Virus record (IMG/VR): IMGVR_UViG_2939201121_000002
Location: 1-64,000 of that record
Length of the DNA: 64,000 nt
Direction: 5' to 3' (one strand)
DNA from: a virus
Lineage: Duplodnaviria; Caudoviricetes
Both the position numbers and the translations under genes were made by a program. The notes below the pieces were generated by a model. The model made no database searches, was not told the origin of the DNA, and was given only the letters and a program-made list of their open reading frames with translations. Shown here piece after piece: positions 24,872-52,525 of this stretch. Within the stretch, counting starts at the first letter, position 1. Each line of letters begins with the position of its first letter.

Positions 24872-27800
24872 ATGGCAAATCCTATAGGTAATATGGTCAT
24901 ACGTGTTGACTTGGACGGCTCAGGCTTTAATAAAGGCATTGCAGGTTTAAACCGTCAAATGCGAATGGTCTCGCGTGAGATGAGCGCTAATTTATCACAG
25001 TTTGGACGCTATGATAAATCTTTAGAGAAATCAAGGTTGAAAGTTGAGGGATTAACTAAGCGTCAACAATTGCAAACACAAAAAGTTAAAGAATTAAAGG
25101 CACAATATAATCGTCTATCCGCTGAAACCGGAGAAAATAGCGCTAAAACACAAGCTGCTGCTGCTAAATACAATCAAGCTTATGCAGAGTTAAATAAGTA
25201 TGAGCGAGAGTTACAAGAAGCAACGAACGAAATGAAAAAGATGGAAACGCAACAACGTGCTTTGAATACTTCTATGGGAAAAATCGGTTCAAATTTATCG
25301 AAATGGGGACCGAAATTCCAAGAAATCGGACGTAGTATGCAGTCCATTGGTCGTAACATGAGTTTGTATGTAACTGCTCCAGTTGTAGCCGGTTTTGGTG
25401 CGGCAGCAAAGAAAAGCATAGACTTTGACGACTCTATGCGTAAAGTTAAAGCCACATCGGGTGCAACAAGCGGAGAATTCCAACAACTCCGCGATAAAGC
25501 GTTGGAAATGGGTGCAAAAACTAAGTTTAGTGCCAGTCAATCAGCAGAAGCTTTGAATTACATGGCCTTAGCCGGGTGGGATACCAAAGATATGCTTAAC
25601 GGTATCGATGGCGTCATGCAGTTAGCGGCAGCTTCAGGCGAAGATTTAGGACAAGTGAGCGATATCGTAACTGACTCGTTAACAGCATTCGGTTTGAAAG
25701 CTAAAGATAGCGGTCACTTTGCTGATGTGTTAGCACAAACAAGCTCTAAAGCAAATACTGACGTTCGCGGTATGGGTGAAGCCTTCAAATATGCAGCACC
25801 AGTAGCAGGGGCGTTAGGATACACTGTGGAAGATACATCAATAGCCATTGGTTTAATGAGTAATGCGGGTATAAATATGCTCGAACACACAGTAATGTGT
25901 GCGTAGAAATCGGTGAATTCGGTAGAGGTTAAGGTGGTAAAACACTATATTAATACCGAGCCAAGCGTGTGAACGTTCAAAAAGTAACACGAAGGTGTAG
26001 AGACTAAAAGTTGAACTAGAACAAGTAATAATACTTTCACGAGCGCCGATTATCCTATTAGGATAAAGATATAGTCCGACACTCAAAGGAAACTTTGAGA
26101 TTATAGGGTAAACTCCTATAAATAACTGTTGATTAAAGGTGAAAAAGCAGGTACAGCATTACGTACTATGTTTACTAACCTAGCAAAACCTACAAAAGCG
26201 ATGAAAAACCAAATGGACGAGTTAGGTATATCCATTACAGACAGTCAAGGTAACATGTTACCTATGCGCGACGTTATGGATCAATTGCGTGGTAAGTTTA
26301 AAGGCTTGTCTAAAGACCAACAAGCAAGCGCAGCAGCTACGATTTTCGGTAAGGAAGCGATGAGTGGTGCATTAGCTGTTATTAATGCTTCTGATGAGGA
26401 TTACAAAAAATTGACGAAGTCTATCGATAATTCAACAGGTGCATCTAAACGAATGTCCGATGAAATGGAAGGCGGTATTGGTGGCTCTATTCGAAAGATG
26501 AAATCAGCTTTTGAGTCACTCGCGATTAGTATTGGTGATGTGTTAGCCCCTCATATACGTAGATTAGCTGACCTTTTAGCAGCATTAGCAACAAACTTTA
26601 CTAATATGCCTGGTTTTGTAAAAACGGCAGTTGTTGGTTTTGGTTTGTTTGCAGCTGCATTAGGACCGGTCATTCTAGCAACTGGTTTATTCACTTCAGC
26701 AATAGGAAGTATCGCAGGTGTTGTAGGACCTGCGATGTTAGCGGTGTCTAAAGCGGGCGGAGTTATGGCTTTATTAGGTACCAAAGCGCCATTAGCAGCG
26801 AAAGGTTTAACGCTTGTCGGCGGTGCGTTTAAATTTATGCTTGGTCCAGTCGGATTAGCAATTTCCGCAATTTTTGCTATCGGTACAGCGTTCGTTATTG
26901 CTTATAAAAAATCTGAAACATTCAGAAGCATTGTAAATAAAGTAATCAATCCAGTTGTTTCAGGTTTCAAAGGTCTTTGGAATGTAGCAAAAAACGTTTT
27001 TGATTCATTGAAAAATCTCTTCTCAGGAAATTCCTTACCTACAGTCGATTTACTATCCAAAATCATGCCTAAAGAAACAGCAACCAAAGTCTCAGCAACT
27101 TTAATGCAAGTGAGACAAACATTCATCAACGCATTCAGTGATATATGGAATTTTGGTCAGGAAATAGGTCGAAAACTTACTTCTTTCTGGAAAGAAAATG
27201 GTGATGATCTAATTCAAGCATTCGTGAATATTGGCAACTTTTTTAAAGGTTTCTTTGTTGAACTTAAAAATTTAATAGGTCCTAATTTACGTGAATTAGG
27301 TACTTTAGTTAAAACGGTATTCATGAATGTAATTGTGCCGACAATCAAAATAGCAATGCAGATTATTTGGAGTGTCATGAAATTTTTATGGCCACTTATA
27401 AAGACATTGATTGTGGATACTTGGAATAATATCAAGGGGATTATAAAAGGCGCATTAGACGTTATATTGGGTATTGTTAAAGTTTTTAGTGGCATTTTTA
27501 CAGGTCAATGGGGCAAAGCATGGTCCGGTGTCAAACAGATTTTCAGTGGTGCATTAACGCTAATTTGGAATTTGATTCAATTATGGTTAATAGGTAAGAT
27601 TCTCAAAGTGGTAAAAGTATTTGCAGGATTGTTTAAAGGTGCATTCAGTGCTCTATTCAAAGGCGCAAAAAATATTGTAACATCATCACTTAAATTTATT
27701 TGGTCGATAGTTAGCAATATTTTTGGAAAAATTTCTTCATTCACACGTAATATTTTCGGTAAACTTTCTAATTTTATAAAAAATATATGGAGTTCGATTC

Positions 27801-29998
27801 GTGATTCAGTGGTGAATATAGTAAAATCGCTTTGGTCTCGAATACGAAATATCTGGAATTCTTTATATAAAGGTTCTCGCAATACTTTTAATAATCTGAA
27901 AAAATGGTTAACGAATTTGTGGTCATCGTTAAGGAATAGGGTTGTTGACACAGTATCGAATATGTGGTCTCGAATCAAAGGAATTTTTAACAATTTATAT
28001 AGCGGGACACGCAATATTTTTGATCGCGTCAGAAATTCGATAGTTGATAAGTGGCGCTCCATTAGAAAATCCGTAACTGATATTGTCTCAAAATTATGGG
28101 GTTCGGTGCGACGAACTTTTAATAATATGTCTGATGGTTTACGTAATATCATAGGAAAAATTAAAGACCATATAGGTGGTATGACAGGTGCCGTTAAAAA
28201 AGGGATAAATGGTTTGATTGATGGTCTAAATGGTATTGGTAAACATTTAAGTCTACCTAAGATACCTAGATTGTCAACCGGTACACAACGTATTAACAGA
28301 CACGTCAAAACAACTCATGACGGACGATTAAAAGAAGGTACTATGGCAGTTGTAGGTGACAGAGGTCGAGGAAATGGTAAAGGTATTGATGGTCGACGCG
28401 AGTTGATTCAATATCCGAATGGACGCACAGTACTCACACCTGCAAAAGATACAACGACATGGCTTCCTAAAGGGTCACGCGTTATTAGTGGTAGTCAAAG
28501 ACAAGGTATGACTGGTATACCTAAATTAAATATAGGTACTTGGTTCGGTAATGCTAAAAACTGGTTGTCAGAAAAGGCGAGCTTTATTGGTGGCAAGGTT
28601 GGAGATGTAAGTAAATGGATTACAGATAAAATCGGTGACGTTATGGACTTCATTGACAATCCAGGAAAACTACTAAATAAAGTGTTAAGTGGTTTAGGTA
28701 TTAACTTCGATTCCATTACTAAAGGCATGGGCATTGTTGGCGACATTACTCGCGGTGCTTGGAAAAATATTAAAAAGGCAGCAACGAAATGGATTGAAGA
28801 AGGCTTCAACTCAATAGGCGGAGAGTTTGTCGGTGGTGTTTTAGACCCTGATAAAATCAATTACCATTATGGTCATACTGCTGCGTACACAGCTGCAACT
28901 GGTCGTCCTTTCCATGAAGGTGTCGACTTCCCGTTTGTTTATCAAACTGTACGTACACCTATGGGCGGACGTGTGGCTAGACAAGCATTTATGCCAGGCG
29001 GATATGGTAACTGGGTTAAAGTTATTGGTGGAGCAATGGAATTAATCTTTGCTCACCTCAAAAACTTCAGCAAAACACCAGCAAGTGGAAAAACTGTCAA
29101 AGCTGGTGACGTTATCGGTTTAACTGGTAATACAGGTTTTAGTACAGGGCCACACTTGCATTTCGGTATTAGAAAAAACGGAAGAGACATTGACCCTGAG
29201 CCTATTTTGAGAGAAGCAAAACGGAAAGGTAAATTAGGTGGCATGGGTGGCGGTAAAGGTTATCCTGCCGGCTCAGGTGCAGCATATGCAAGTCGTGTTA
29301 TCAGTCAAGCGCAGAGTATTCTTGGTGGTCGATATAAGTCACGTTACATTCACGAACAAATGATGCGTGTGGCTAAACGTGAGTCAAACTATCAACCTAA
29401 CGTAGTAAACAACTGGGATATCAATGCTTTACGTGGCGATCCATCACGTGGGTTGTTCCAAATTATTGGAAGTACATTCCGTGCTAATGCAAAACCTGGT
29501 TACAATAATTTTAGCAATCCATTGCATCAAGCAATCTCAGCAATGCGATATATCGTTGCTCGTTATGGTTGGGGTGGATTCAAACGCGCTGGTGACTATG
29601 CTTACGCGACAGGTGGATTAGTTCACAAAGGATTATATCAATTAGGAGAAGAAGGTTACCCCGAATGGATTATTCCAACTGATCCATCACGTGCTAGTGA
29701 CGCAGCAAAATTATTAGCGTTAGCTAGTAAGGATATTAGCAAAAATAAACGTCCGAAAAACTTTAATAACACTACTATCGGAAATGACAACGACAGTAAC
29801 AGTAAACTTGAAAGCAAGCTAGATACTATGATTGGCTTACTGATTAAGCTAGTCGGAAGTAATGAGGAAATCGCAGACAAAGACTATACTCCTATTATTG
29901 ACAATTTCGGATTGAAAGACTTTATCAATGTAATAATGGATAAGCGTGAACGTGATAAGTCACGTAAAGGTAGATATGGCGGAGGTGCTTTAATTTAA
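24872..29998 (+). CDS. Tape measure protein (join 24872..25870,26132..29998; 1621 aa) with C-terminal M23 peptidase and lytic transglycosylase domains
   Basis: Removing the intron restores SNAG-IKGEKAGTALR; HEGVD/HLH M23 motifs; RESN/GLFQ SLT motifs. Confidence 0.92.
25871..26131 (+). ncRNA. ORF-less group I intron (261 nt)
   Basis: 5' exon ends in U with P1 CGGGU/GCUCG (U.G pair); P3 AATCGGTG 25908 / CGCCGATT 26044; P7 GACTA 26002 / TAGTC 26072 within AAGATATAGTCC; terminal G at 26131. Confidence 0.92.
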
Positions 29999-38180: not shown

Positions 38181-39641
38181 ATGTTAACAGCTATTGACTA
38201 TCTAACTAAAAGAGGTTGGAAAATATCGTCTGACCCTCGCGCATACGACGGCTATCCTAAAAATTATGGATACCGCAATTATCAAGAAAACGGTATTAAT
38301 TACGATGAATTTTGCGGTGGGTATCATAGAGCATTTGACGTGTATTCTAACGTGACTGATGATGTGCCAGCTGTAACGAGCGGAACAGTTACGGAAGCAA
38401 ATGACTACGGTAATTTTGGCGGTACATTTGTCATTAAAGATGACAACGGCAATGAATGGATTTACGGGCATCTCGTAAGGGGTTCAATGCGTTTCGTTGT
38501 TGGTGACAAGGTGAATCAAGGTGACATTGTTGGTTTGCAAGGCAACAGTAACTATTACGACAATCCTATGAGTGCGCATTTACATTTACAATTACGTCCT
38601 AAAGATGCGAATAAAGATAAAAAATCTCAAGTGTGTAGCGGATTAGCGATGGAGAAGTACGACATTACAAAATTAAATGCAAAACAAGATAAATCTAAAA
38701 ATGGGAGCGTGAAAGAATTGAAACACATTTATTCAAATCACATTAAAGGTAATAAGATTACAGCGCCGAAGCCTAGTATTCAAGGGGCGGTTATTCATAA
38801 TGACTATGGAAGCATGACACCGAGTCAATACCTACCTTGGCTTTATGCACGTGAAAATAACGGTACACACGTTAATGGTTGGGCAAGCGTGTATGTGAAT
38901 CGTAATGAAGTTTTATGGTATCACCCAACCGACTATATCGAATGGCATTGTGGTAACCAATGGGCAAATTCTAATTTAATTGGTTTTGAAGTGTGTGAGT
39001 CATATCCTGGGCGAATCTCAGACGCGTTATTTTTAGAAAACGAAGAAGCAACGTTAAAAGTAGCTGCGGACGTGATGAAATCGTACGGATTACCAGTAAA
39101 CAGAAACACGGTTAACTTACACAATCAGTATTTTGGTACTTCATGCCCACACAGATCATGGGAATTGCATGTAGGTAAAAACGCACCATATACTACTGCA
39201 AATAAAAACAAACTGAAAGATTATTTTATTAAACGTATTAAGCATTATTATGATGGTGGCAAGTTAGAAGTAAGCAAAGCAGAAACTATCAAACAATCTG
39301 ACGTTAAAAAAGAAGTTAAAAAACAAGAAACAAAACAAGTTGTTAAGTCAACAGATTGGAAGCAAAATAAAGACGGTATTTGGTACAAAGCTGAACATGC
39401 TTCATTTACAGTGACAGCAAATGAGGGAATCGTTACGCGTTACAAAGGTCCTTGGACTGGCCACCCACAAGCAGGCGTATTACAAAAAGGTCAAACGATT
39501 AAGTATGATGAAGTCCAAAAATTTGATGGTCACGTGTGGGTATCGTGGGAAACATTCGAGGGTGAAACGGTATATATGCCAGTGCGCACATGGGACGCTA
39601 AAACTGGTAAGGTCGGCAAATTATGGGGAACAATTAAATAA
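38181..39641 (+). CDS. Endolysin, phage 2638A-like (M23 peptidase, amidase, SH3b)
   Basis: 486 aa; HRAFD/HLH, amidase HND...TSCP, SH3b DGHVWVSW; N-terminus closely resembles Ply2638A as recalled. Confidence 0.92.
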   Translation: MLTAIDYLTKRGWKISSDPRAYDGYPKNYGYRNYQENGINYDEFCGGYHRAFDVYSNVTDDVPAVTSGTVTEANDYGNFGGTFVIKDDNGNEWIYGHLVRGSMRFVVGDKVNQGDIVGLQGNSNYYDNPMSAHLHLQLRPKDANKDKKSQVCSGLAMEKYDITKLNAKQDKSKNGSVKELKHIYSNHIKGNKITAPKPSIQGAVIHNDYGSMTPSQYLPWLYARENNGTHVNGWASVYVNRNEVLWYHPTDYIEWHCGNQWANSNLIGFEVCESYPGRISDALFLENEEATLKVAADVMKSYGLPVNRNTVNLHNQYFGTSCPHRSWELHVGKNAPYTTANKNKLKDYFIKRIKHYYDGGKLEVSKAETIKQSDVKKEVKKQETKQVVKSTDWKQNKDGIWYKAEHASFTVTANEGIVTRYKGPWTGHPQAGVLQKGQTIKYDEVQKFDGHVWVSWETFEGETVYMPVRTWDAKTGKVGKLWGTIK

Positions 39642-39756: not shown

Positions 39757-40422
39757 CTACTTTTTTGAACTTTTAATGTTAACATCTTCATTGGAGAGTT
39801 TACTTACAAAGTCAGCATGTTTCAATAAGTCACTGTTAATTTTTTTGTTTCCAATTTTAATTAGTCTAATTTGTATTCCTTCACGTCTTGCTTGTTTTAA
39901 AGCCGGAACAAAGTCGGCATCGCCTGTAACTAAATAGATTCTATCAACTATATTATTATTTGATAACCAAGCTACGTCTAAACCGATTTTAATATCTACC
40001 CCTTTTTGCTGAAAATCTGGAGCAAAGTCGTTATCAGTAAGTTTTAATGTATCTTTTATTGTACCTTCTCTTATCTTTTTCAATACTGGTTCTTTTAGCT
40101 TCCAGCCTCTAAACATTGTTTCTCCTAATCTCATAGCAATATAATCAAGTTGCGAAAGATCTTGTATCAATTCACTAGAATATTTATTTATTTTTGATTC
40201 GGAAAAATCAATTTTCTCTTTGGAAATAGGCTTTTCAACAGTTTGTTTATTTGGGCTACCTTGATAATAAAAAATCCTAAAAAGTTCTTCCTCTTTTTCA
40301 TTAATCAAATTAGTTAAGAAGTTATACTGTGAACTTAAATCAGGATATTGCGTTGTATTTTGAGCGTCTCTTATTCGGTGTAATAAGAATTGGCCATCAA
40401 CTATTATTGCTACTTTTTTCAT
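39757..40422 (-). CDS. NYN (PIN-like, LabA/DUF88) ribonuclease moron
   Basis: IIVDG, QKGVDIKIGLD, LVTGDADF acidic motifs. Confidence 0.9.
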   Translation of the reverse strand: MKKVAIIVDGQFLLHRIRDAQNTTQYPDLSSQYNFLTNLINEKEEELFRIFYYQGSPNKQTVEKPISKEKIDFSESKINKYSSELIQDLSQLDYIAMRLGETMFRGWKLKEPVLKKIREGTIKDTLKLTDNDFAPDFQQKGVDIKIGLDVAWLSNNNIVDRIYLVTGDADFVPALKQARREGIQIRLIKIGNKKINSDLLKHADFVSKLSNEDVNIKSSKK

Positions 40423-40442
40423 TTTTTCCCCCTTGTCTACAG

Positions 40443-40554
40443 AAAAAGCTCTGCCCACGTATAAAAGTTTGGCAGAGCTATAGGTATTTTATTGTTTTGA
40501 GGTCTGTATGCGTGACCTTTATATAAATATAAGGAATAATAAGTTTTTTGTCAA
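40443..40554 (-). promoter_or_regulatory. sigA promoter and terminator-containing leader of the NYN gene
   Basis: TTGACA (40554-40549), 17 bp, TATATT; AGCTCTGCC/GGCAGAGCT stem plus U-run before the RBS. Confidence 0.7.
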
Positions 40555-41301: not shown

Positions 41302-41445
41302 TAAAACACCCCGCCTGCAATAGGTGGGGTGAAAGTGTCAAACGCGTGTCAATTTAGTCTATTTTTGTCTAGTTTAGTCACAAAGTTAAAGTGATGAAAA
41401 GCCGATAATCACGCTGTTTCAGTGCTAAACACAATATAAAGGTTT

Positions 41446-41460
41446 TCCCTCACTCTCCGT
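41446..41460 (+). other. attR core, duplicated tRNA-Ser 3' end
   Basis: TCCCTCACTCTCCG matches a tRNA-Ser T-stem/acceptor 3' strand; preceded by GTGTCAA direct repeats at 41335-41352. Confidence 0.7.
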
Positions 41461-41889
41461 AAAGAGCCGAAAAAGTTTAAACTACTTTTTCGGCTCTCTT
41501 TTTACATATAAGCTCAAAACGCTGTCATATCAAGTATTTGAGACTACTTCATTAAATACATAGAAAACAAAATTTAACTATACTTAACTTAGTTTTTAAA
41601 ATTTTTGGTCACAATGTGGTTAATGGCAGGCATAAAAACCGCGAATTTAGTCACAAGGTTTGTATAATTTAGTCACAAGAGGTGAATTACCTCATTTTTT
41701 AACAATATCGGTAAGTTGGAAACCAGTTGAACAAGTAATATTTTGTATTAGATTTACATAAGCATTTCAAAGTACTTATGAAGTATTCACAAGTCACATC
41801 AGATCTTAGATGTTGCCTTGTGCCAGCTTGCATGAGTACATTTATCAATGCAGTAAATCCAATATACAAACCATTACTCAAAATTATTA

Positions 41890-42170
41890 GCACTTAATCA
41901 CTTCGAAAAGGGGGAAGTGATTAAGTGCTTTTTAATGTTAGTAACCAGTTTATTCTTAATTGATTTCAGTTAAATTGATTAAGCACCATCCTATAACAAC
42001 AAAGTGATTGTAATGTCTATTGACATATACAAACAATCACTACATAAGCCTGCTAAGGGTCAAGATGAACGAATTACATTCGCCCTGCACGCTTCTTCTT
42101 GTTGTTATTTGGATTAAGCAAATCAATAAATAACTGAAATCAAAACAAATTATTAAAAAAACTGGAGGGG
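41890..42170 (+). repeat. Structured repeat copy 1
   Basis: GCACTTAAT...ATTAAGTGC hairpin plus ~230-bp conserved branched fold-back ending in a GGAGG RBS. Confidence 0.9.
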
Positions 42171-42176
42171 TTCAGC

Positions 42177-42575
42177 ATGAACACAACACAATTCATTATT
42201 TATTCCGTAAATGACGTTAAGAAGGTAGCAGAAAATATCTCACTGTTTCAGAAAAAAGAATATGGAGATAATTCAAACGTCATAGAAATCATTGATGAAT
42301 TAATGAATAAAGGAAGATGCGATATTGCATATACGGAACTTGAAAATGGAGAAGGGGAAATTCAAGTATATTTAGACTTTAAAAACTTTAGACTTGTTAG
42401 GGAAATCACTTTTTATGAACTCCCTTTACCGATGATGATTAAAGAAATTCAAGATTTAGAATCGATAGAAGAAATGATATTAGAATCCGAAAATTTGAAT
42501 TTTGATGAATTAGTATCATGTAATGTTGATTATGCTGAATTGAATATAGAAGAATTGAAAAGTCTCACATTGTGA
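42177..42575 (+). CDS. Acidic hypothetical protein (132 aa)
   Basis: RBS supplied by the repeat; terminator at its 3' end. Confidence 0.75.
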   Translation: MNTTQFIIYSVNDVKKVAENISLFQKKEYGDNSNVIEIIDELMNKGRCDIAYTELENGEGEIQVYLDFKNFRLVREITFYELPLPMMIKEIQDLESIEEMILESENLNFDELVSCNVDYAELNIEELKSLTL

Positions 42576-42589
42576 GGCTTTTTTTATTT

Positions 42590-42871
42590 GCACTTAATCC
42601 TTCCATCCGATGATTGAAAGGATTAAGTGCTTTTCGTTATGGTAACCAGTTTATCCTTAATTGATTTCAGTTAAATTGATTAAGCACCATCGTATAGCAA
42701 CAAAGTGATTGTAATGTCTATAGTCATAAACAAACAATCACTACATAAGCTCGCTAAGGGTCAAGATGAACTCATTGCATTCGCCCTGCACGCTTCTTCT
42801 TGTGGCTATTTTGATTAAGCAAATCAATAAATAACTGAAATCAAAATCAAATTATTAAAAAAATGGAGGGG
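42590..42871 (+). repeat. Structured repeat copy 2
   Basis: Aligns end to end with copy 1. Confidence 0.9.
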
Positions 42872-42877
42872 TTCACC

Positions 42878-43093
42878 ATGAACTATCAAGAAATTAAAAA
42901 CATTTTAGAAAATAGTGAGGTCAAGGAAGTAGTGAAAGCTATATTTGCATATGAAACAGGTGAAAAAGATGAATCTTGTTTAAACTACTTAACAAATTAT
43001 TTTTTTGAGGGGGATATGGAAAGCTTTCTAGATTGTGAGATTAGAGAGTTACAAATGGAGTGGAACTGGCAACGAGCTGTAAATAAACAATAA
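42878..43093 (+). CDS. Acidic hypothetical protein (71 aa)
   Basis: RBS supplied by the repeat. Confidence 0.7.
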   Translation: MNYQEIKNILENSEVKEVVKAIFAYETGEKDESCLNYLTNYFFEGDMESFLDCEIRELQMEWNWQRAVNKQ

Positions 43094-43167
43094 AAAATTT
43101 TTAAATTTAATGAAAGGGGGTGATGCCTATGCTGATAAAAAATATATAAAGAAAGGGGGTGTTATCG

Positions 43168-43295
43168 GTGAACAGACTTGAACGAAAGAAGCGAGAACAA
43201 GATGAACAGTTTGAAAAAATAAAAGTCGTATTGAAAATTATCAATACGACTTAATAACAATCTGTAACTTCTTATTTCATGTTACACATGGATAG
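43168..43295 (+). pseudogene. Frameshifted homolog of the 40806 peptide
   Basis: MNRLERKKRE...INTT stop at 43254; the -1 frame continues LITICNFLFHVTHG. Confidence 0.5.
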
Positions 43296-43359
43296 GTTCT
43301 CACACATAGGGGTTGCCCCCCTATGTGTTCTTTCTTCATTATATCAAAGGAGGGATACG

Positions 43360-43437
43360 ATGAAAAGTGATTCAAAAAAAGTTTTAGTTATAATGGTAAT
43401 ATTAACTGTCATCAATGTTATTTTAGCGTTTTTATAA
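43360..43437 (+). CDS. 25-aa hydrophobic peptide
   Basis: AGGAGG RBS; MKSDSKKVLVIMVILTVINVILAFL. Confidence 0.55.
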   Translation: MKSDSKKVLVIMVILTVINVILAFL

Positions 43438-43456
43438 ATTACAAAATATTTGAAAA

Positions 43457-43731
43457 GCACTTAATTCATGTATAAATAAATAGACTAAGTGCTTTTCGTT
43501 ATGGTAACCAGTTAATTCTTAATTGCTTTCAGTTAGATTGATTAAGCACCATCCTATAACAACAAAGTGATTGTAATGTCTATTGTCATATACAAACAAT
43601 CACTACATAAGCTTGCTAAGGGTCAAGATGAACGAATTACATTCGCCCTGCATGCTTATTGTTGTTGTTATGTGGATTAAGCAAATCAATAAATAACTGA
43701 AAACAAAACAAAATTATTAAAAAAATGGAGG
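43457..43731 (+). repeat. Structured repeat copy 3
   Basis: Aligns with copies 1 and 2. Confidence 0.9.
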
Positions 43732-43739
43732 TCAAAATA

Positions 43740-43931
43740 ATGTTAGTTACTAAAGAAGAATTTAAAGCCTTAGATATCAAATCAGTATTTGAGAGTGGGA
43801 ATAACTTCATTAAAATAAAAGACGGTAAGCATGCAATCTATCATGTCAATGGGAAATATCAAGTTGTAGAAAGCGATAAACTTTATCCAACAAAGCGAAT
43901 ACCAAAATATATTAAAACAAAATTAGCTTAA
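43740..43931 (+). CDS. Small basic hypothetical protein (63 aa)
   Basis: GGAGGT RBS supplied by the repeat. Confidence 0.7.
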   Translation: MLVTKEEFKALDIKSVFESGNNFIKIKDGKHAIYHVNGKYQVVESDKLYPTKRIPKYIKTKLA

Positions 43932-44324
43932 AATAGTAAGGAGGAAATTAAAATGAAAAAGTGGTCTCAATCAATAATAAATCAAAAAATAACCATCACT
44001 AGCTTTGGAGAATGTGATGGTTATTTAACAGCCAAATATTAATCCACCGTCTTTTTAACGGTCTCACCAAGGCAAGGCACTTAATGTGTGTTGCCTTTTC
44101 TATTTATAAATTACCATATCAACTTCATTTTGTCTAATACATTAGATGAACCAATTCGAAAACAGCTTTCTACAATAGTATATGTAAAGTGATTTTTCGA
44201 TGCACGAGAATGCTGTATATACAATAAACAAAACTCAAGAATAATTATTTAAAAAAGAAGGATTCAGATGATGAATAAAAATGTTGCATAACGTAACAGG
44301 GTTTGATATAATTTTTTTGTAATG

Positions 44325-44491
44325 AAGAGACGGCCACTCGGGGCAGTCATAAAACAATATACCAGAGTTACAAGAGACGGCCACTCGGGGCAGTCATAAA
44401 ACAATATACCAGAGCGAAAAGAATCAATGATTATTGAAATATCATAATCATTGATTTAAGAAAAAGAGACGTTCATAGCGTCTCTTTTTTT
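44325..44491 (+). ncRNA. Type III antitoxin RNA (TenpI-like): two 43-nt identical repeats, period 47, plus terminator
   Basis: TTGCAT, 17 bp, TATAAT (44284-44312); repeats 44325-44367 and 44372-44414; AGAGACG/CGTCTCT terminator 44461-44491. Confidence 0.8.
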
Positions 44492-44510
44492 ATATAATTG
44501 GAGGATTATT

Positions 44511-44902
44511 ATGGATATTTTTTCTTTAAATCAAGCTTTTTTTAGTGAAAAATTTAAAAACAAATCCGAAGTAGAGCACAATAAAAATGGAACACGCCCT
44601 TATTACTATTCATTTAAGTATAACAATCAAAATATATGTATACCTTTAAGGTCAAACGCTAAAAAAACACCAAAACGTTTTAAATTGGGATTAAAACATC
44701 TGGAAAAAAATAGAATTGCTCCAGCTGTAGATTCAACTAAAATGATAATTTTAAGTGATCAGGAAATAGAGGAAAATAAAAGAGAAGTAGTAATGAATAG
44801 ACGGACATATAGATTTTTAGAAAAAAATGAAAGTTTAATAAAACAAAAGTTTAAAAACCACATAGACGATTATGTATCAACTGTTGCAAATGGAAATAGA
44901 GA
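44511..44902 (+). pseudogene. Type III toxin (TenpN-like), C-terminus replaced by IS21 sequence
   Basis: RPY...ICIPLRSN...D.TKMII motifs; the ORF runs into the IS end at 44903. Confidence 0.75.
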
Positions 44903-44963
44903 TGTCAATAGCGGTTTGAAAATGTTGTTTTATGGCGGTTTGAAAATGTCGTTTTTTAGCGGT

Positions 44964-45584
44964 TTAATAATGACGTATGTTTAAACTTTTTTCACTTTTA
45001 TAGTCTTTAAGTCGGTAGGAATCCCCTGTAATTTTAAATATTTTTGAATGGTGAATGAGTCTATCAATAATGGCTGCTGACGCTATTTTGTTACTAAATG
45101 AATCCCCCCAACTAGAAAAGGGGATATTCGTCGTTATGATTGTGGATTTCATTTCATATCTGAGTGACATCAATTGATAGAAGAGATCCGCCTGTTCTTT
45201 TGAGATGGGTGTATAGCCTATCTCATCAATGATAAGCAGTTCAATTCTGTTTAATTGTTTTAAAGTTTTATTGATTATTCCTTTCTTCTCTAGAAAATGC
45301 ATGGATTTTAATGTAAGTACTTCTTGTTTATTAATACTTGGTTGAAACGTAAAATCAAAGTCACTTAAATATTTAATCTTAGGGAAACGTGCTAACTGAA
45401 TAGCACGTTTAAATTTTTGTTCAGCTTGATATTCTACTTCCTTTTCCGTCAACTCAAGTAAAATTTCAGTTAAAGATTTTTGATTCTTGGATAGTGATTC
45501 TAAATACTTCGGATAATAGTCTTTAATCATTTTTAGATTGAGCTGTTGAAAGTTTTCTAATAGTTTTTGATGGTCTGTATACAT
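44964..45584 (-). pseudogene. istB: IstB ATPase with internal deletion removing Walker A
   Basis: FDFTFQP...MHFLE joins directly to KKGII...LLIIDEIGY; no GxxGxGKT. Confidence 0.8.
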
Positions 45585-45594
45585 ATCTGTTCTC

Positions 45595-46830
45595 CTATAC
45601 CTCGTCATATTTTAATAATGAATCTTCGATATAACTAAGAATTTCTTGATCGTCTTTATGCTTGAGTACATCAGACTTCAAGATCTCACACATATCTTCG
45701 GTAACATAATTGAATTTCTTTTCCGATAAATGATGCGTTCTAATTAACTCGGCATCAAAGTAGATTGATAACTCGTCAGTCAATTCATTAAAGATTAATT
45801 GAACCTCCTCTCCAATGAATTTTGTAGGTACTGAATATTTACCTTTTCTAAAATTAACCATCGACTCTTTAGAAACGATTCGAATGCATTCATCTTCGAC
45901 ATAGGTGTCTAATAACTGCATATTAAACGGGTTCAATAGATGTTTTTCTTCAGAATTGAATAAATCAATGGGATAGCAGTCAGTTGCTTGGGACATTTCG
46001 TTATGGTTCATTTCATGACAAAAGTGATTGACAAGACTGATAAGTTCAACAGCGTCATAAAATTCATAATCTTAGGGCCTTAAACGCTGTTCCACAAATT
46101 TAGCTAAAGATTCAACAGAGCCCTTGGTTTGTGGTCTATAAGGCCTACACGCGATGGGTTCAAAGTTTGCATCTTTACTAAATTGATGGAAAAGGGTGTT
46201 AAATACAACTTTTCTATATTGCGTTCTAGGACGATCAACGACCGTTTTCATATTATCAAACCATATCTCCTTAGGAACGCCCCCGGTGTACTCAAATGAT
46301 TCTTTCAAACATTGAAATAGTGTATCTTGTTTTCTATCCCAAGTTAATGTGATATACTTCATTTTTGAATAGTGTAGAACGTAAAGAAAGATATTGAATT
46401 GATAACGTTTGCCAAATTTATCATGCATGACCATATCTTCTTTCCAGTCTACTTGAGCAGCTATACCAGGGCGTGTTTCTACCCGTATAGTTGCTTTTTT
46501 AATTTCCTTCTCTTTCTTATTCTTACAATATTCTCTAAGAATCGTATACTTGCCTTCATATCCTTTTTTAGAAATATATTTAAAAATCGCCATAGCCGTA
46601 CAACCCAACTCTAATTTTTCGTCTATGAGCGTTTTATAAGGTTCTAATTTTGATACTCTCTTTGTCGTTTTCCTTGTTTTTAATTTTTTCAACTCATTTT
46701 CTTTCCCAGCCTCGTAATATTTTTTGACTGTCCTTGGATCGCAATGATACTGTCTACCTAGCTCAGCGTAATTTGGTTTTATGCCTTTCATAATGTAAAA
46801 TGACACTCCTTCGTATATATCATGTCTCAA
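45595..46830 (-). pseudogene. istA: IstA transposase with in-frame nonsense codon at 46072-46074
   Basis: QVDW, FDNMK, KGSVE motifs; the frame continues DYEFYD after TAA. Confidence 0.85.
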
Positions 46831-46952
46831 TCAAACAACCTCCATTCAAAGATTGAGTTAAGACATGATTATATATTTTAGAAAATAAAAAATGTAGGAA
46901 AAACAGCATTTTCATTCCGCCATTTTCCTACATTTTATAACCGCCATTTACA

Positions 46953-47205
46953 ATTGGCGCTCAGATAAATTTTTCTTATTTTTTATCACAAGCCAATCAT
47001 TGTAATACTCCTTAAATGTTTTATCATCAATTGCATTACCATCTTCTAAATCACGTATTAATTGTTGCGCTGCATTGACTGCTTCAGCTTTCGTTTTGAA
47101 TCCTGATTTTCGTTTTTTTCCTGACCTAAAAGAGGGGTGTTTGACGTCATATTGCCAAGACGATGTCGTTTTATTTTTACGTTTTGTTACTGTAAATGAT
47201 GCCAT
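46953..47205 (-). pseudogene. int: Integrase 5' fragment, near-identical to prophage 1 int
   Basis: MASFTVTKRKNKT...NLSERQ, truncated at the IS21 end. Confidence 0.92.
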
Positions 47206-47300
47206 TTTGTAGTTCCTCCTAAAAAAAGTAAAAAAATAAACATACTAAGATTAGCTGTGAAGAAATTTATGACGATAGATTTCTTCACAGCTATTTTTTA

Positions 47301-49168
47301 GTGCGCCCGGCATGGGTAACACCTTGACGGTGAAAGTCCGTTACAGGCTTGGTAGTAGGAACTGTTAGCGAAAGACAAGGGTGTCCATTGTGAAGTGGAA
47401 TCTGAAGGAAGTCGGACGCAAACACTCGCACTGACGAACAGAAACATCATACTAAGGCTATGTGGAATGGATGAATCTGCTAAACAAGATGAAGTCCTAT
47501 ACTACCCGAGTTCTATATAGTAAATGATGCGGTGACATGAGTGGAAAGGGGTTACACCTTACCCGGGGAGGTCTCATCAGCGGTATTTCTACCGTAGTAA
47601 CAACGAATGATGAGAAGTCAGCAGAAGTCATAGTAGGGAAAATGTACCGAAGGACTGAACAATATTCAATACAAAGTAAAGATTGGAGGTTATAGATTTA
47701 CGACGTACAGAATACGGTCTTAACCGGCAACTTATGGAAGGATAAGTAGTGGAACGAAAAAGAATACATAAGTGTGTACAGTAAATCTTAGGTGAAATGA
47801 AAGAAATGTATCGTAAGTCTTCATCTCTGATGGAGCTTGTTGTAAGACCTGACAACATAGAAAAAGCTATCAAGAAGGTAAAGAAAAACAAAGGTGCTCC
47901 TGGAATTGACGGCATGAAAGTCAGTGAACTCCATGCCCACTTTGCGCAATACTTTTCGCAGATAAAAAAGAAACTGCTTGATGGTACTTATCAACCTCAA
48001 GCAGTTCGAAAAGTTCAAATTCCCAAACCAAACGGGAAAATGCGTGTGCTTGGTATTCCTGTCGCTAGAGACAGAGTGATACAACAAGCGATTAGACAAG
48101 TGATTGAACCCGGCATCGACCGAACATTTTCAAATCATAGCCATGGTTTCAGACCTCATCGTAGCACAGGAACAGCACTTAAGCAATGTGCTGCCTATTA
48201 CGAAGAAGGCTATAAAATAGCTGTGGATTGTGATTTGAAACAGTGCTTTGACATGTTGAATCATGATAAGCTCATGTATTTGTTCGAACGCCACGTTCAA
48301 GATAAGTCAATTTCTAAATTTATCCGTAGAAGTTTACAAGTGGGTGCTATTGACCTATCTGGCGAAGTCGCAGAAAGAAAGATAGGTGCGCCACAAGGGG
48401 GCGTTATCTCTCCCTTACTATGTAATATCTATCTACATGAACTGGATAAAGAACTCGAAAAGCGTGGACACCGTTTTGTACGATATGCCGATGATTTTGT
48501 TATCTTTGTACGCACAAAACGTGCAGGCGAACGCGTAATGACGAGTGTAACGAAATTTATTGAAAAGCAACTGAAGTTGGTTGTCAATGAAGAGAAAAGT
48601 AGAGTCGGAGCAGTTACACGTTTAAAGTTTTTGAGTTGTCTAATAACCAAGGTCAATGGGGTTTATCGTTTCAGACCGACTACGGAAGCAAAAAGAAATT
48701 TAATACGCGCCTTAAGGAAAATAACGAAACGAAATAGACCCGGTACCTTTAAAGAGATTATCACTGAAATCAACCAAGTAACACGAGGTTGGATAAATTA
48801 CTTTGGCAGAGGTTTTATCAAAGGATTTATTGAAACTACGCAATCTTGGCTAAACCGCCGACTTAGACAACTCATTCTTAAACGGTGGAAAAGAGTAAGA
48901 ACTAAATATAAGATGTTACGCCAATATGGTCTTGACCATAGAAGTGCAATGAAAATCGCACAGTCTCGCAAAAAGTACTGGCGATTATCGAATACGCATG
49001 AGGTTCATCGTGCACTTACAACAAAACAACTCTACAAGTGGGGACTGATACCATTAGCCCAGCTTGCAGAGTTGGCTTACGCAAGGTATTGAACCGCCGA
49101 GTACGGAACCGTATGCTCGGTGGTGTGAGAGGACGAATAGTCAGTTAATGGCTATTCTCCTACTCGAT
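47301..49168 (+). mobile_element. Group IIC intron
   Basis: 5' GTGCG directly after a 15-bp hairpin plus T-run; DV GAACCGCCG...CGGTGGTGTG; DVI ending CCTACTCGAT. Confidence 0.92.
47797..49092 (+). CDS. ltrA: Group II intron reverse transcriptase/maturase (no endonuclease domain)
   Basis: APGIDG, RVLGIP, PQGG, YADD, RGWINYF. Confidence 0.95.
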   Translation: MKEMYRKSSSLMELVVRPDNIEKAIKKVKKNKGAPGIDGMKVSELHAHFAQYFSQIKKKLLDGTYQPQAVRKVQIPKPNGKMRVLGIPVARDRVIQQAIRQVIEPGIDRTFSNHSHGFRPHRSTGTALKQCAAYYEEGYKIAVDCDLKQCFDMLNHDKLMYLFERHVQDKSISKFIRRSLQVGAIDLSGEVAERKIGAPQGGVISPLLCNIYLHELDKELEKRGHRFVRYADDFVIFVRTKRAGERVMTSVTKFIEKQLKLVVNEEKSRVGAVTRLKFLSCLITKVNGVYRFRPTTEAKRNLIRALRKITKRNRPGTFKEIITEINQVTRGWINYFGRGFIKGFIETTQSWLNRRLRQLILKRWKRVRTKYKMLRQYGLDHRSAMKIAQSRKKYWRLSNTHEVHRALTTKQLYKWGLIPLAQLAELAYARY

Positions 49169-49312
49169 TAGTTGTAGAGAGAAGTAGATCGCGCAGTCCC
49201 TTGGATCTTTGAATCCGTAATGTAAACTGATCAGCTTTACTCTCCTTTTGAAATTCGATTGAAGTATGTTGGGTTTTAGAAACCGTGTATAGGAAAATGA
49301 AATGAAAAAGGC
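49169..49312 (+). ncRNA. Predicted IS110 bridge RNA target and donor loops (5' stem-loop at 47252-47293)
   Basis: AGTATGTT 49263 and TAGGAAA 49290 match the two sides of the circle junction TAGG-AA-ACATACT. Confidence 0.65.
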
Positions 49313-49352
49313 TAAGTAAAGTTAAAATCTTCTCAATTCAATAGAGAAAGGT

Positions 49353-50561
49353 ATGATTTTTATTAACTGTTTAGGTATTGATATCAGTAAGTCAGAAAGT
49401 GTGGTCGCACATTATAAGGATGAAGTTTTCGTTAAAGAATTGGTCATTCAAAATAATCAAAATGGCTATCGTTATCTTAAAAATTATATCAAGCATCTTG
49501 ATTCCCTGTTTATCCTCTTTGAATCAACAGGTGTTTATTCAAGAGGTATGAAACACTTTTGTGAAATTCACAAAATAAATTACTTAGAAATGAACCCCCT
49601 AGAAGCCAAGTTTAAAACAAATTCGTTAAGATCATGGAAAACAGATAAGTCAGACGCACATAAACTCGCACTTCTTGCCTTTAGAATGAAAGATTCAAAG
49701 GTACAACGTCATCCTGAAGAGATCTACTTTGAACTGAGAGAACGTGCGCGCTTTCACTTAGAAATGGAGATCAACCAAAATTGTCTCAAAGTTGAGTTAG
49801 TCGAAACACTACATCAAACATTTCCAGGGTTAGAAAAGTTATTTACTAACAGATATTCAAAAATCGCATTAAATATAGCTAAAGCATTTCCTCATCCTGA
49901 TTATGTAAGTATTTTGACTCATGATGAATTGGTGGAAAAAGTACTTCATTCAACTGATAAAGGCATTTCAATTAAAAAAGCGCACAAGTATGCCAAAAAA
50001 TTAATTGAAATAAAGAATAATAGTTTTCCGAATGTGCGCAAGTCTTCTTTCCTCCTACAAAAAGTCCAATACTTATGCGACAAACTGCTTATTGGGATAG
50101 AAGAAATGAAAGCATTTAATCAGGAAATGATTGATTTAGCTAAAAATACAACTGAGTTTGAAAATATTATTTCAATTCCTGGCATCGGAGAACTCACAGC
50201 TACATTGCTTATTGGGGAACTTGGAGATATTAGAGAATTCAAAACAAATAAACAACTGAATGCATTTGTAGGCATTGATATTAAACGTTACCAATCAGGA
50301 ACTTCAAAGAGTCGAGATACGATTAATAAAAGAGGAAATAAAAAAGCAAGGCGTTTATTGTATTTAATCACTATGAACATTCTTAGGGGAAGAAATCATT
50401 ATCAAAGCCATATTGTGGATTATTATTATAAATTAAGAGAGCAGCCTCATGGGAAACCCCACAAGACTGCCGTAATAGCGAGTATCAATCGCTTATTAAA
50501 GACCATTCACTACTTGATAGTCAATGATAAATTATATGATTATCAGAAAGCACCACACTAA
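49353..50561 (+). CDS. IS110 DEDD recombinase
   Basis: GIDISK, FESTG, KTDKSDA, SIPGIG, QSG. Confidence 0.95.
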   Translation: MIFINCLGIDISKSESVVAHYKDEVFVKELVIQNNQNGYRYLKNYIKHLDSLFILFESTGVYSRGMKHFCEIHKINYLEMNPLEAKFKTNSLRSWKTDKSDAHKLALLAFRMKDSKVQRHPEEIYFELRERARFHLEMEINQNCLKVELVETLHQTFPGLEKLFTNRYSKIALNIAKAFPHPDYVSILTHDELVEKVLHSTDKGISIKKAHKYAKKLIEIKNNSFPNVRKSSFLLQKVQYLCDKLLIGIEEMKAFNQEMIDLAKNTTEFENIISIPGIGELTATLLIGELGDIREFKTNKQLNAFVGIDIKRYQSGTSKSRDTINKRGNKKARRLLYLITMNILRGRNHYQSHIVDYYYKLREQPHGKPHKTAVIASINRLLKTIHYLIVNDKLYDYQKAPH

Positions 50562-50676
50562 CGAAACCACATAATCATATACATCATAACACCTTATTCA
50601 AAAAAGTAAAAATTGGACGGTCTAGTTCAGTAATGTCAATTTCACTTATTGAACCCTTGACAAATCGTAGGAATAA

Positions 50677-52506
50677 GGGGCTGGGACGTAATTCCTGCCC
50701 TCTTCGCTAAAAAAGCTCTGATTAGATGTAAAAAAACATTTAATCAGAGCTTTTTTAGATATTATTTAAAAAAATAAAGCACTTCCTGTATAATTATTAA
50801 TAACGACAAAAATAATAGACAGGGGTGCTTTATATGTATAAAAATTATAACATGTTTCAACTTACACTTCCAATAGAAACTGAGATGTCTTTTCCAGAAA
50901 ATGATATTGTATTTATTATTAACAAACTTGTAGAATCTATCCCCCAAGAAGCGTTTAATCCATATTATAGCCAAAGAGGTCCTTCATCATACCATCCAAA
51001 AATGATGTTAAAAATCATACTTTATAGTTATGCCCATTCTGTTTTTTCAGGACGAAGAATCGAGCATCTGTTAAAAGATAGTTGCCGAATGATGTGGCTT
51101 GCGCAAGGTCAAACGCCAACTTATAGAACCATCAATCGCTTTAGAGTGAACCCCCATATGATGGAATTTCTACATATTTTATTTGTCGGTTTAAGAGCAC
51201 AGTTATTAGAAGATAAACTCATAACAGAGGATGTCATTTATATTGATGGCACAAAAATAGAAGCAAATGCGAATAAGTACACATTCCAGTGGCTGGCTAA
51301 TACGAAGCGTTTTAGTCAGTCTGTCATTGAAAAATCAACGGCTTTATATGAGCAACTCGTTTCTGAAGAGATTATTCCTGAAATCAAACGTGAATCTGGG
51401 CATGAATTAACAAGTGAAGAACTGAATCAAATAGAGACGCATTTAGGTCATAAAAATGATGCGCTCACGTCTGAAATTGAAACGACTCAAGATGTAGAGA
51501 CAAGAAAAACCCTTAGAAAAGAAAGAAGTAAGGTGAGACAAAGTAAGAAAGCCATCCAAGATTTTAAAGACCGTAAAATCAAATATGACAAGCAAATGGA
51601 AATTTATGGTGACAGAAAAAGTTATTCAAAGACCGACCACGATGCGACCTTCATGAGAATGAAAGATGATCATATGAGAAACGGCCAATTGAAACCGGGT
51701 TATAACCTACAAATCGCAACCCATAATCAATTCGTTTTAGCTTTTGGTGTTTACAGTTATCCAGGTGATACAAGAACGCTCGAACCATTTTTAAAATCCA
51801 TCCACAATTTATATGGTGACATTCCAGAGTATATTGTGGCAGATGCGGGTTACGGAAGTGAATACAACTATACCATGATACTCGATGAATTTGAGAAAAC
51901 ACCTTTAATCACTTATAGTATGTATCTCAAAGAGAAGCAGCGCAAATATAAAAACAATCCATTGATTACTGCTAACTGGGAATACCGTGAGATAGATGAT
52001 TACTATATATGTCCTAACAAAAAGGAATTACATTTCCAAAGTTACAGAAAGAAAAGAGATGGATACGGTATTCAAAGAGATTTTAAATTATATGCATGTG
52101 AAGAGTGTGTGGGCTGTCCATTACGAAGTCAATGTATGAAGCAAAGTACGAACCCCAACACAAATAAACGCTTATTTAGAAATTTAACTTGGGACTATTT
52201 TAAAGCCTTCACAAATCAACAGCTTTCAGATCCAAAGACGAAACACATTTATCAAAAGAGAAAGATAGATGTTGAATCAACTTTTGGAAATCTGAAGGCT
52301 AATTTGGGTTTCCAAAGATTATCGGTTCGCACAAAATCAAAGGTTGAGTGTGAACTTGGCATCGCACTCATGGCAGTAAATATACGAAAACTAGCTAAAA
52401 TAAGTGCTCGTTTTCGTTCGTTAATAAGAAAAAAGCCGTCAAATTCTAAAAAAATGAATTTTGACGTCTTTTTCTTAAAGGAGCTGAAGGTCTATGTCCC
52501 AGCCCC
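50677..52506 (+). mobile_element. IS1182-family element
   Basis: Terminal IRs GGGGCTGGGAC / GTCCCAGCCCC. Confidence 0.88.
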
Positions 52507-52525
52507 TAAAATATTAAGATTTTAA
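50834..52525 (+). CDS. IS1182 transposase (reads through the right IR)
   Basis: YHPKMMLK, IDGTK, KTDHDA, ADAGY, VESTFG. Confidence 0.92.
   Translation: MYKNYNMFQLTLPIETEMSFPENDIVFIINKLVESIPQEAFNPYYSQRGPSSYHPKMMLKIILYSYAHSVFSGRRIEHLLKDSCRMMWLAQGQTPTYRTINRFRVNPHMMEFLHILFVGLRAQLLEDKLITEDVIYIDGTKIEANANKYTFQWLANTKRFSQSVIEKSTALYEQLVSEEIIPEIKRESGHELTSEELNQIETHLGHKNDALTSEIETTQDVETRKTLRKERSKVRQSKKAIQDFKDRKIKYDKQMEIYGDRKSYSKTDHDATFMRMKDDHMRNGQLKPGYNLQIATHNQFVLAFGVYSYPGDTRTLEPFLKSIHNLYGDIPEYIVADAGYGSEYNYTMILDEFEKTPLITYSMYLKEKQRKYKNNPLITANWEYREIDDYYICPNKKELHFQSYRKKRDGYGIQRDFKLYACEECVGCPLRSQCMKQSTNPNTNKRLFRNLTWDYFKAFTNQQLSDPKTKHIYQKRKIDVESTFGNLKANLGFQRLSVRTKSKVECELGIALMAVNIRKLAKISARFRSLIRKKPSNSKKMNFDVFFLKELKVYVPAPKILRF

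Follow-up and report, generated by a model that had tools for sequence, protein, structure and literature searches.

A modular family of structured leader sequences precedes unrelated small genes in a staphylococcal chromosomal islet

Repeated structured regions in front of establishment and anti-defense genes are already known from conjugative Bacillus plasmids of the pLS20 family, in which they are termed establishment gene regulatory sequences type 1 (EGeRS1; Val-Calvo et al. 2021, Microorganisms 9:2465, PMC8708921). According to the part of that report available to us, pLS20 harbors five conserved copies of 400–600 bp, each directly 5′ of a different establishment operon's ribosome-binding site (RBS). 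The copies contain many inverted repeats and, by the RBS, a ~325-nt branch with four ramifications, and they are GC-rich (51% vs. 38%). In reporter fusions, EGeRS1 displayed no constitutive promoter and blocked transcription from upstream in an orientation-dependent fashion; the authors argue against a single-stranded DNA (ssDNA) promoter and leave the mechanism open (PMC8708921). Our term search of the literature found no later paper on EGeRS1. Also pertinent are Frpo/ssi, the ssDNA promoters of F-like and IncI plasmids (PMC11541004, in the excerpt available to us, citing Masai and Arai 1997). Here, we describe an array of three structured repeats in a 64,000-nt stretch of staphylococcal DNA (positions 1 to 64,000 of the IMG/VR virus record IMGVR_UViG_2939201121_000002; hereafter, the window). 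An initial reading of the letters alone (the original prediction) had taken this array for a set of ssDNA promoters of a conjugative leading region.

The array consists of three units on the + strand, each 283–288 nt long when read from the hairpin to the start codon (41890–42176, 42590–42877, and 43457–43739; all coordinates are those of the window), and each stands before an unrelated small open reading frame (ORF). The copies originally noted at 41890, 42590, and 43457 were recovered as direct repeats of 260 nt (41909–42168, 42610–42869, and 43472–43731; n = 3), with 84–89% identity to the reference copy and a mean column identity of 90% in the alignment of the three. The order of the parts is fixed: a hairpin followed by TTTT, a short AT-rich stretch, an invariant AACCAGTT, a 184-nt fold-back that we call type A, an A-rich linker, and a strong Shine-Dalgarno sequence. 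The individual features are listed here; bit scores are those of a covariance model for which the eight type A copies considered below were the input.

41890–41933, + strand: hairpin 1 with its T-run, resembling an intrinsic terminator (−24.2 kcal/mol, z −8.7)
41960–42143, + strand: type A fold-back, copy 1 (219.7 bits)
42164–42170, + strand: Shine-Dalgarno sequence GGAGGGG of gene 1, with the A-rich linker 5′ of it
42590–42634, + strand: hairpin 2 with its T-run (−20.0 kcal/mol)
42661–42844, + strand: type A fold-back, copy 2 (212.7 bits)
43457–43496, + strand: hairpin 3 with its T-run, imperfect (−10.8 kcal/mol)
43524–43705, + strand: type A fold-back, copy 3 (217.1 bits; model match 43523–43706)

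As had been proposed, the hairpins (41891–41927, 42591–42629, and 43458–43491) combine a conserved base with variable tops: in all three units, the base reads GCACTTAAT / (A/C)TAAGTGC and is followed by TTTT. The whole 2.9-Mb genome contains seven such palindromes, all of which lie either within the islet that holds the array or within a second islet ~30 kb downstream. Over 120 contigs from unrelated taxa hold the hairpin form GCACTTAAT..TTAAGTGCTTTT with a T-run, which is what a common terminator shape, rather than a special site, would be expected to show. A fourth GCACTTAAT hairpin, which had been thought to close the array at ~44071, turned out to be something else, namely an AAGGCAA...TTGCCTT hairpin (44069–44097) that holds GCACTTAAT in its upper stem/loop and has no ATTAAGTGC partner.

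The type A fold-back comprises 66 base pairs and one three-way branch. Its stems (TTGATTTCAGTTA/TAACTGAAATCAA, AGTGATTGT/ACAATCACT, and AGGG/CCCT) appear in both the minimum-free-energy and the consensus structures, which agree with the branched fold that the original prediction had drawn. The unit's 3′ end, GGAGG, is likewise as described there, and the ATG follows 6–8 nt beyond it (at 42177, 42878, and 43740). For unit 1, the RNA fold had a z score of −6.75 on the + strand (none of 200 shuffles was as stable) and −7.04 on the − strand; with DNA parameters, the scores were −8.6 (+) and −9.9 (−), and again none of 200 shuffles was as good. The GC content of the units is 0.30–0.34, vs. 0.373 for the genome. 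Rfam 15 yielded no match to the repeats, either at the gathering score or with E as high as 10. The repeat contains a 37-codon frame that was considered as a possible coding sequence and rejected: in the alignment, judged by eye, a 1-nt deletion breaks the frame in three of the eight copies, and the element is therefore not coding.

The covariance model was run over 86 representative genomes of the genus, with one genome per species for the S. intermedius group. It matched only the eight copies from which it had been built, and blastn agreed. These copies are distributed over three genomes: three copies occur in the genome that contains the window, three on a contig of Staphylococcus intermedius, and two in a further genome (G097), all of them in the same syntenic islet. 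Standard pairs occupy 97.1% of the 664 pair cells in these eight copies. Six pairs have changed on both sides, as compared to 2.6 ± 0.9 in shuffled alignments (none of 500 reached six) and 0–1 when the partners were slid. Within the fold-back, variable columns are concentrated outside the stems (15 of 134 paired columns vs. 20 of 50 unpaired columns; Fisher p 3e-5). The change from ATAAC/GTTAT to ATAGC/GCTAT, cited originally as compensatory, falls in alignment columns 120/229, where A-U becomes G-C, and two other genomes have it as well, in the orthologous copy 2. A second kind of fold-back, type B, which is introduced below, behaves similarly: in its six copies, 10 of 34 pairs have changed on both sides, vs. 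4.9 ± 1.6 in shuffles (none of 500) and 1–4 with slid partners. Compensatory changes thus exceed both controls, in keeping with the earlier claim that structure is being conserved. From these alignments, we take selection on the pairing of types A and B to be real but modest in its support, as the copies are few and related and the principal changes in type A each arose once and were then inherited by orthologues. Leader A2 is 96–97% identical between species, compared with 89% for gene 2 behind it; for leader A1 and gene 1, the corresponding figures are 90–91% and 88%. By these identities, conservation of the leaders equals or exceeds that of the genes that follow.

Beyond these eight copies, the element was elusive. 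In the genome that contains the window, blastn and the covariance model found only the three type A copies, plus fragments in the second islet. A blastn search with unit 1 gave no match in the phage collection and none among 72,556 plasmids (PLSDB) at E 1e-5. Scans for exact 20-mers and 17-mers returned, from genome contigs beyond S. intermedius, one chance match in a Bacteroidales contig; from viral contigs, they returned six matches, none of which holds a type A element by the covariance model. A pattern made of the two conserved ends separated by a gap of 188–216 nt was discarded as too loose, having at least 120 genome and 31 viral matches in unrelated taxa; the only true match among those listed was S. 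intermedius. A metagenome contig of 1 kb, found with the gene 2 protein, reads by eye like the second-copy region of G097 and contributes no new variation. Unit 1 lies within the part of the stretch that one sequencing run (X1; 13% of the sampled words, probably low-depth DNA) covers, with a few differences.

Type B, which the original prediction had not noted, is present immediately ahead of the array, and it has no sequence similarity to type A while following the same fold-back plan.

41712–41889, + strand: type B fold-back B0, with no gene behind it, which runs straight into unit 1 (RNA fold z −5.4)

Six type B copies were identified in three genomes, with a mean identity of 66%. The two types share their ends. 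The 5′ AACCAGTT box is present in all eight type A copies and in four of the six type B copies; B1, the sole type B copy that precedes a gene, has the 3′ end ATTATTAAAAAAACTGGAGG in common with type A and, as type A does, ends in ATTATTAAAAAAACTGGAGGGG.

Leaders have also changed partners. Within the same genome, the gene 2 homologue has a type A leader in the array and a type B leader in the second islet. The slot after a small hydrophobic ORF is occupied by type A in S. intermedius and by type B in G097. The second islet also contains a type A fragment cut after 42 nt, then another hairpin and a type B element. From these swaps between gene 2 homologues, species slots, and islets, we conclude that leaders and genes assort independently. 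Two unrelated sequences of one plan are interchangeable. As first supposed, every repeat provides a different gene with its RBS, and the three ORFs behind the type A leaders are mutually unrelated; this arrangement, together with the reassortment of the leaders, speaks against simple duplication, in which the repeats would always precede the same gene family.

What might such a leader do? We regard it as an even bet that what stands before these unrelated small accessory genes is a family of leader cassettes, lineage-specific, portable, and cis-acting. In the mechanism that we propose, the leader would act in cis and on the transcript. The hairpin and the fold-back would insulate the downstream gene from transcription arriving from upstream, and a shared leader would place several unrelated genes under one default-off control; EGeRS1 of pLS20, which is alike in architecture, behaves in this manner experimentally. 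Translation may be limited as well: the Shine-Dalgarno sequence has at its 5′ edge an AACUGG with which a 5′ CCAGUU would pair. Unit 1 and the type B1 leader both have this helix in their minimum-free-energy folds, and its position at the Shine-Dalgarno edge is what suggests such an effect. The original prediction had listed a cis-regulatory RNA among its alternatives, and that alternative comes closer to the reading favored here than does the ssDNA promoter.

Several observations weigh against this leader hypothesis. The eight type A copies come from only three species, and shuffle controls overstate the support when copies are related. The CCAGUU/AACUGG helix is lost in four of the eight type A copies (which have ATGGAGG or TGGAG instead), and it is absent from the consensus fold. 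Neither strand folds better than the other, whether as RNA or as DNA; the consensus folds of the two strands are −57.6 vs. −58.2 kcal/mol for type A, −16.2 vs. −17.4 kcal/mol for type B, and −71.2 vs. −83.3 kcal/mol for a plasmid repeat described below. This equality leaves room for a role at the DNA level. Finally, the units are like EGeRS1 in architecture alone: their sequences show no similarity, the units have about half its length, and they are rich in AT where EGeRS1 is GC-rich.

The genes behind the leaders and their signals are as follows.

42177–42575, + strand: gene 1, encoding a 132-aa acidic orphan protein, with homologues only in the S. intermedius group and S. schleiferi
42557–42583, + strand: gene 1's own terminator, distinct from hairpin 2
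42878–43093, + strand: gene 2, encoding a 71-aa acidic orphan protein, whose start fits the Shine-Dalgarno sequence at 42865–42871
43740–43931, + strand: gene 3, encoding a 63-aa protein of phrog_16907 (E 4.9e-26), with its Shine-Dalgarno sequence at 43727–43731

Gene 1 gave no sequence match in Pfam, PHROG, PADLOC, or the PDB, and a protein atlas search was also empty; its AlphaFold model, based on a six-row alignment, had a mean pLDDT of 55. Relatives of gene 2 occur in the S. intermedius group and S. schleiferi, with distant homologues in two other staphylococcal genomes. Homologues of gene 3 were found in 18 records of S. aureus or Staphylococcus phages, where they lie toward the phage's right end. 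One such record was inspected, that of phage StauST398-3; its homologue, at the right end, is packed behind another gene without such a leader. PADLOC had no match for any of genes 1–3. Another staphylococcal genome (L040 206–834, G064 contig C93) has a single ORF of 209 aa in which a gene 1-like part is joined to a gene 2-like part, a fusion suggesting that the two proteins work together.

The array is located at the edge of a prophage, and two features to its left define the setting.

41446–41462, + strand: 17-nt copy of the tRNA-Ser(gga) 3′ end, the att core and attR of prophage 1, at which the islet begins
41463–41700, + strand: module M, a terminator-like hairpin (41463–41497) with TT(A/G)GTCACAA repeats (repeat family D9)

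The 17-nt att core is identical to the 3′ end of the genome's tRNA-Ser just left of the window. In G097, a tRNA cluster ending in tRNA-Ser(gga) is followed directly by islet sequence homologous to window positions 41446–43434; in the genome under study, prophage 1 (integrase 4–1104, endolysin 38181–39641) lies between the tRNA-Ser and the islet. The copy of the tRNA end at 41446–41462 and the G097 layout together put the array beyond prophage 1, immediately to the right of its attR. On the array's other side are a locus of tandem repeats, an element of the IS21 family, another integrase's N-terminal stump, a group II intron, two more IS elements, and a second set of phage structural genes. A Pfam search of the complete, one-contig genome returned no match for the relaxases PF03432 and PF02486 or for the coupling protein PF02534, and the pWBG749 oriT core had no match in the window at up to one mismatch. 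The conjugative leading region first envisaged for the array thus gives way to a site beside a prophage attR, in a genome with no relaxase or coupling protein match, and to arms in which no −35/−10 match of 9/12 or better is conserved.

Promoter content matters to two of the alternatives. No −35/−10 match of at least 9/12 is common to the eight type A copies. All of them share a weak TTGTAA-18-AACAAT (8/12), and copy 2 alone has TTGAAA-18-TATGGT (9/12), which spans its hairpin. Promoter-like sites in the region number 22, vs. 24.5 ± 4.8 in shuffles. It is unlikely, in our estimation, that the units are constitutive modules of the “moron” type, with a weak, −10-only promoter between the hairpin and AACCAGTT, a fold-back that serves as a 5′ mRNA stabilizer, strong translation from the A-rich linker and Shine-Dalgarno sequence, and no gate. 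A −10-like hexamer (TATGGT, TATGAT, TATTAT, TATATT, or TAGTAA) does abut AACCAGTT in nearly all units of both types, copy 2 attains the score just mentioned, and a terminator before each unit fits independent transcription units. However, the −35 position is not conserved, hexamers of this kind are common in AT-rich DNA, and the sites are no more frequent than in shuffled sequence. Moreover, the strong selection on 66 base pairs would exceed the needs of a 5′ stabilizer, and EGeRS1, in the accessible part of its description, had no promoter activity in reporter fusions. We consider a Frpo/ssi-type ssDNA promoter to be quite improbable. In that model, the folded − strand would present promoter boxes beside the three-way junction, with its stems stacked, and a sense transcript would start ~45 nt before the ATG. 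The boxes of the original prediction do exist on the − strand, as TTAGCA-16-TGnTATAGG, provided that the AGTGATTGT hairpin (39 nt) is looped out; the composite matches at 8/12, without a T at the last −10 position, and is weaker in six of the eight copies (CTAGCA in three, TATACG in four, one copy having both). The DNA-parameter folds are strong on both strands, as noted above, and on our reading of the fold the boxes, their spacing, and the geometry would be self-consistent and would give sense transcription from the folded − strand. The lack of a good double-stranded promoter would suit a promoter that needs folding, and homologues of genes 1 and 2 stand behind analogous repeats on a contig from a conjugative plasmid. 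Nevertheless, a chromosomal islet by prophages, in a complete genome with no relaxase or coupling protein and with the pWBG749 oriT core absent from the window, offers no source of single-stranded entry; type B, in the same slot, displays no equivalent box pair by eye; and the EGeRS1 authors, in the part of their paper available to us, argue against such a promoter, the transferred strand being the non-template strand (PMC8708921). It is the weakness of the composite boxes, the missing type B counterpart, and the missing route of single-stranded entry that lead us to rate this model low.

The remaining alternatives dispense with promoters. Recombination sites that shuffle gene cassettes had been raised by the original prediction, and a broader version, in which the repeats have no regulatory role and are either a scaffold of homology for cassette exchange between islets and phages or relics resembling miniature inverted-repeat transposable elements (MITEs), must be weighed. 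Reassortment of leaders and genes is real, mosaic joints fall at unit boundaries, and the second islet, with its cut type A fragment, hairpin, and type B element, has the look of such traffic. Against this version, the hairpin is a widespread terminator shape, which weakens an attC-like reading, and the compensatory changes, along with the concentration of variation in unpaired columns, point to selection on pairing and not only on sequence. Two unrelated sequences with the same fold-back plan also occupy the same slot, and the rest of the genome holds no further copies, which sets the element apart from dispersed repeats such as MITEs. A purely recombinational or selfish origin therefore seems to us improbable. 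We think it very improbable that the repeats are genes, on either strand, for trans-acting small RNAs or antisense RNAs, such as antitoxins of neighboring toxin-like genes. The strong structure of the element would be in keeping with such a role, as would features in the islet that recall toxin-antitoxin systems (a weak RatA match at 44022–44113 and tandem repeats at 44325–44418). Yet the repeat itself has no Rfam family even at E up to 10, no conserved promoter/terminator pair bounds the fold-back on either strand, and its fixed position against the RBS of protein genes argues for action in cis.

Other features of the region deserve description in their own right. Each copy of the tRNA-Ser att core has the module M region (41364–41700) after it; this genome contains a second such module at window-equivalent 70541–70778, and G097 contains two (L022 420–520 and 3130–3190). 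Module M may hold recombinase arm sites or operators. The RatA antitoxin RNA match, on the − strand, is weak (33.5 bits vs. a gathering score of 49; E 0.06). It adjoins an apparent 3′ remnant of the small hydrophobic ORF, which is complete in S. intermedius and G097 (43950–44113; L012 2915–3040), and remnant and RatA-like site may, from their sequences, be a decayed type I toxin-antitoxin pair. The interval 44270–44984 has the layout of a type III toxin-antitoxin locus: a promoter-like TTGCAT ... TATAAT (by eye), two 47-nt tandem repeats that are 94% alike, a terminator-like hairpin, and a 157-aa ORF (44511–44984; phrog_8049) whose 3′ end overlaps istB of the IS21-family element. A paralogous locus with different repeats is present in the second islet (L004 ~1960–2460). 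The 157-aa ORF had no ToxN-like match in Pfam, PADLOC, or PDB sequence searches, so it is from the layout that a type III system is suggested. Mobile elements are piled up at 44964–52525; these include the IS21-family genes, with istA split into two ORFs, the integrase stump (84 aa; 46948–47202, − strand), the group II intron with its reverse transcriptase/maturase (47384–49092), an IS110-family transposase, and a DDE transposase. The second phage structural set (portal at 54876) seems to be without its early region. Within prophage 1, a group I intron (Rfam RF00028, 78 bits; 25860–26099) between the large tail-region ORFs 24872–25906 and 26129–29998 may interrupt one tail-region gene, and a gene for an NYN-domain (LabA-like nuclease) protein (39757–40458, − strand; phrog_5783, with a weak PADLOC NYN match) lies just after the endolysin.

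With regard to known systems, a comparable array exists in the same genus. It is a repeat array of the pWBG749 family (L041 6862–11413, G076 contig C2) with five copies of 290–410 nt, spaced by ~1.0–1.1 kb, each before different small genes, among them one for a DUF4314 protein; the contig also carries a type IA topoisomerase gene. The repeat matches 92 PLSDB plasmid records, of which 91 are labeled Staphylococcus, 50 are typed as conjugative, and one is pWBG749 itself (NC_013327.1, 17616–17975). It shares with our units a terminator-like hairpin with a T-run, a branched fold-back (~220 nt), an A-rich linker, and a Shine-Dalgarno sequence, and it folds with a z score of −11.3. Genes 1 and 2 both have homologues in its cargo, at 42% identity over 77 aa (E 3e-12) and 34% over 62 aa (E 3e-10), respectively; a protein atlas search with an ORF of the plasmid array was empty. 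The homologous cargo genes link the islet to a large repeat family on staphylococcal conjugative plasmids. The differences are that the plasmid repeat has no detectable sequence or covariance-model relation to type A (best score 17.5 bits, E 0.036), that its unit is longer (~410 nt), and that it resides on conjugative or mobilizable plasmids. The literature searched, including the portion of the pWBG749 oriT paper available to us, contained no description of this repeat, which may be described elsewhere.

Shorter structured elements between genes are familiar as well. The RNase III sites between the early genes of phage T7 and the stem-loops that stabilize the 5′ ends of Bacillus mRNAs are single hairpins of a few tens of nucleotides within one transcript. 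Like the units, they are homologous structured elements between consecutive small genes that could define mRNA ends or stability; the units, in contrast, open with a terminator-like hairpin and carry a 184-nt branched fold.

The Frpo/ssi elements, so far as the excerpt describes them, resemble the units in having a long fold-back 5′ of small genes, several copies, and a strong predicted ssDNA structure. They differ in their leading-region setting, whereas the islet sits between the tRNA-Ser prophage attR and a truncated integrase with IS elements, with no oriT core found in the window and no relaxase or coupling protein found in the genome. The arms of the units also share no −35/−10 match of at least 9/12, and unit 1 had no plasmid match in PLSDB by blastn at E 1e-5, a search that involved no direct comparison with a named Frpo sequence.

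It is speculative, and we think it doubtful, that small accessory genes on staphylococcal mobile DNA are served by a general “entry gate” defined by structure, with at least three unrelated sequence families (type A, type B, and the pWBG749-plasmid repeat) that would work like EGeRS1. In such a scheme, the fold-back, be it in the transcript or in DNA that is extruded or transiently single-stranded, would silence anti-defense or establishment genes in a settled host and would let them be expressed for a short time when they reach a new cell or when phages attack. Were it true, the chromosomal islet would show the gate working outside conjugation, and the 184-nt type A core, with its interchangeable type B counterpart, would be the smallest known version with which to dissect the mechanism. 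A shared gate would also mean a small regulon of possibly anti-defense genes in a veterinary staphylococcus, along with a compact mechanistic model. If the units are only modules of expression or recombination, they would still furnish a tidy example of cassette evolution beside a phage attachment site.

Judged by architecture, EGeRS1 is the closest known system to the units. In both cases, several conserved copies reside in one element, each at the RBS of a different gene or operon, and multiple inverted repeats form a branched structure by the RBS, which in the units comprises the 66 base pairs with covariation support. Neither displays a recognizable constitutive sigma-A promoter, judging by the lack of a conserved promoter-like site for the units and, in the available account, by reporter fusion for EGeRS1; upstream transcription is blocked in EGeRS1 by experiment, and the units open with a terminator-like hairpin. 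The two differ in sequence (no match by blastn among the 72,556 plasmids, a collection in which the presence of pLS20 is unconfirmed), in length and composition (400–600 bp and GC-rich for EGeRS1, vs. 283–288 nt and a GC content of 0.30–0.34), and in context, EGeRS1 being reported from a conjugative plasmid and the units lying in a chromosomal islet by prophages with cargo that has no functional match. The array is a real, selected, modular family of structured leaders that is EGeRS-like and situated in an unexpected, non-conjugative setting. What it contributes beyond the knowledge from pLS20 is a far shorter version, rich in AT, whose two interchangeable cores stand between fixed ends, in a chromosomal islet.

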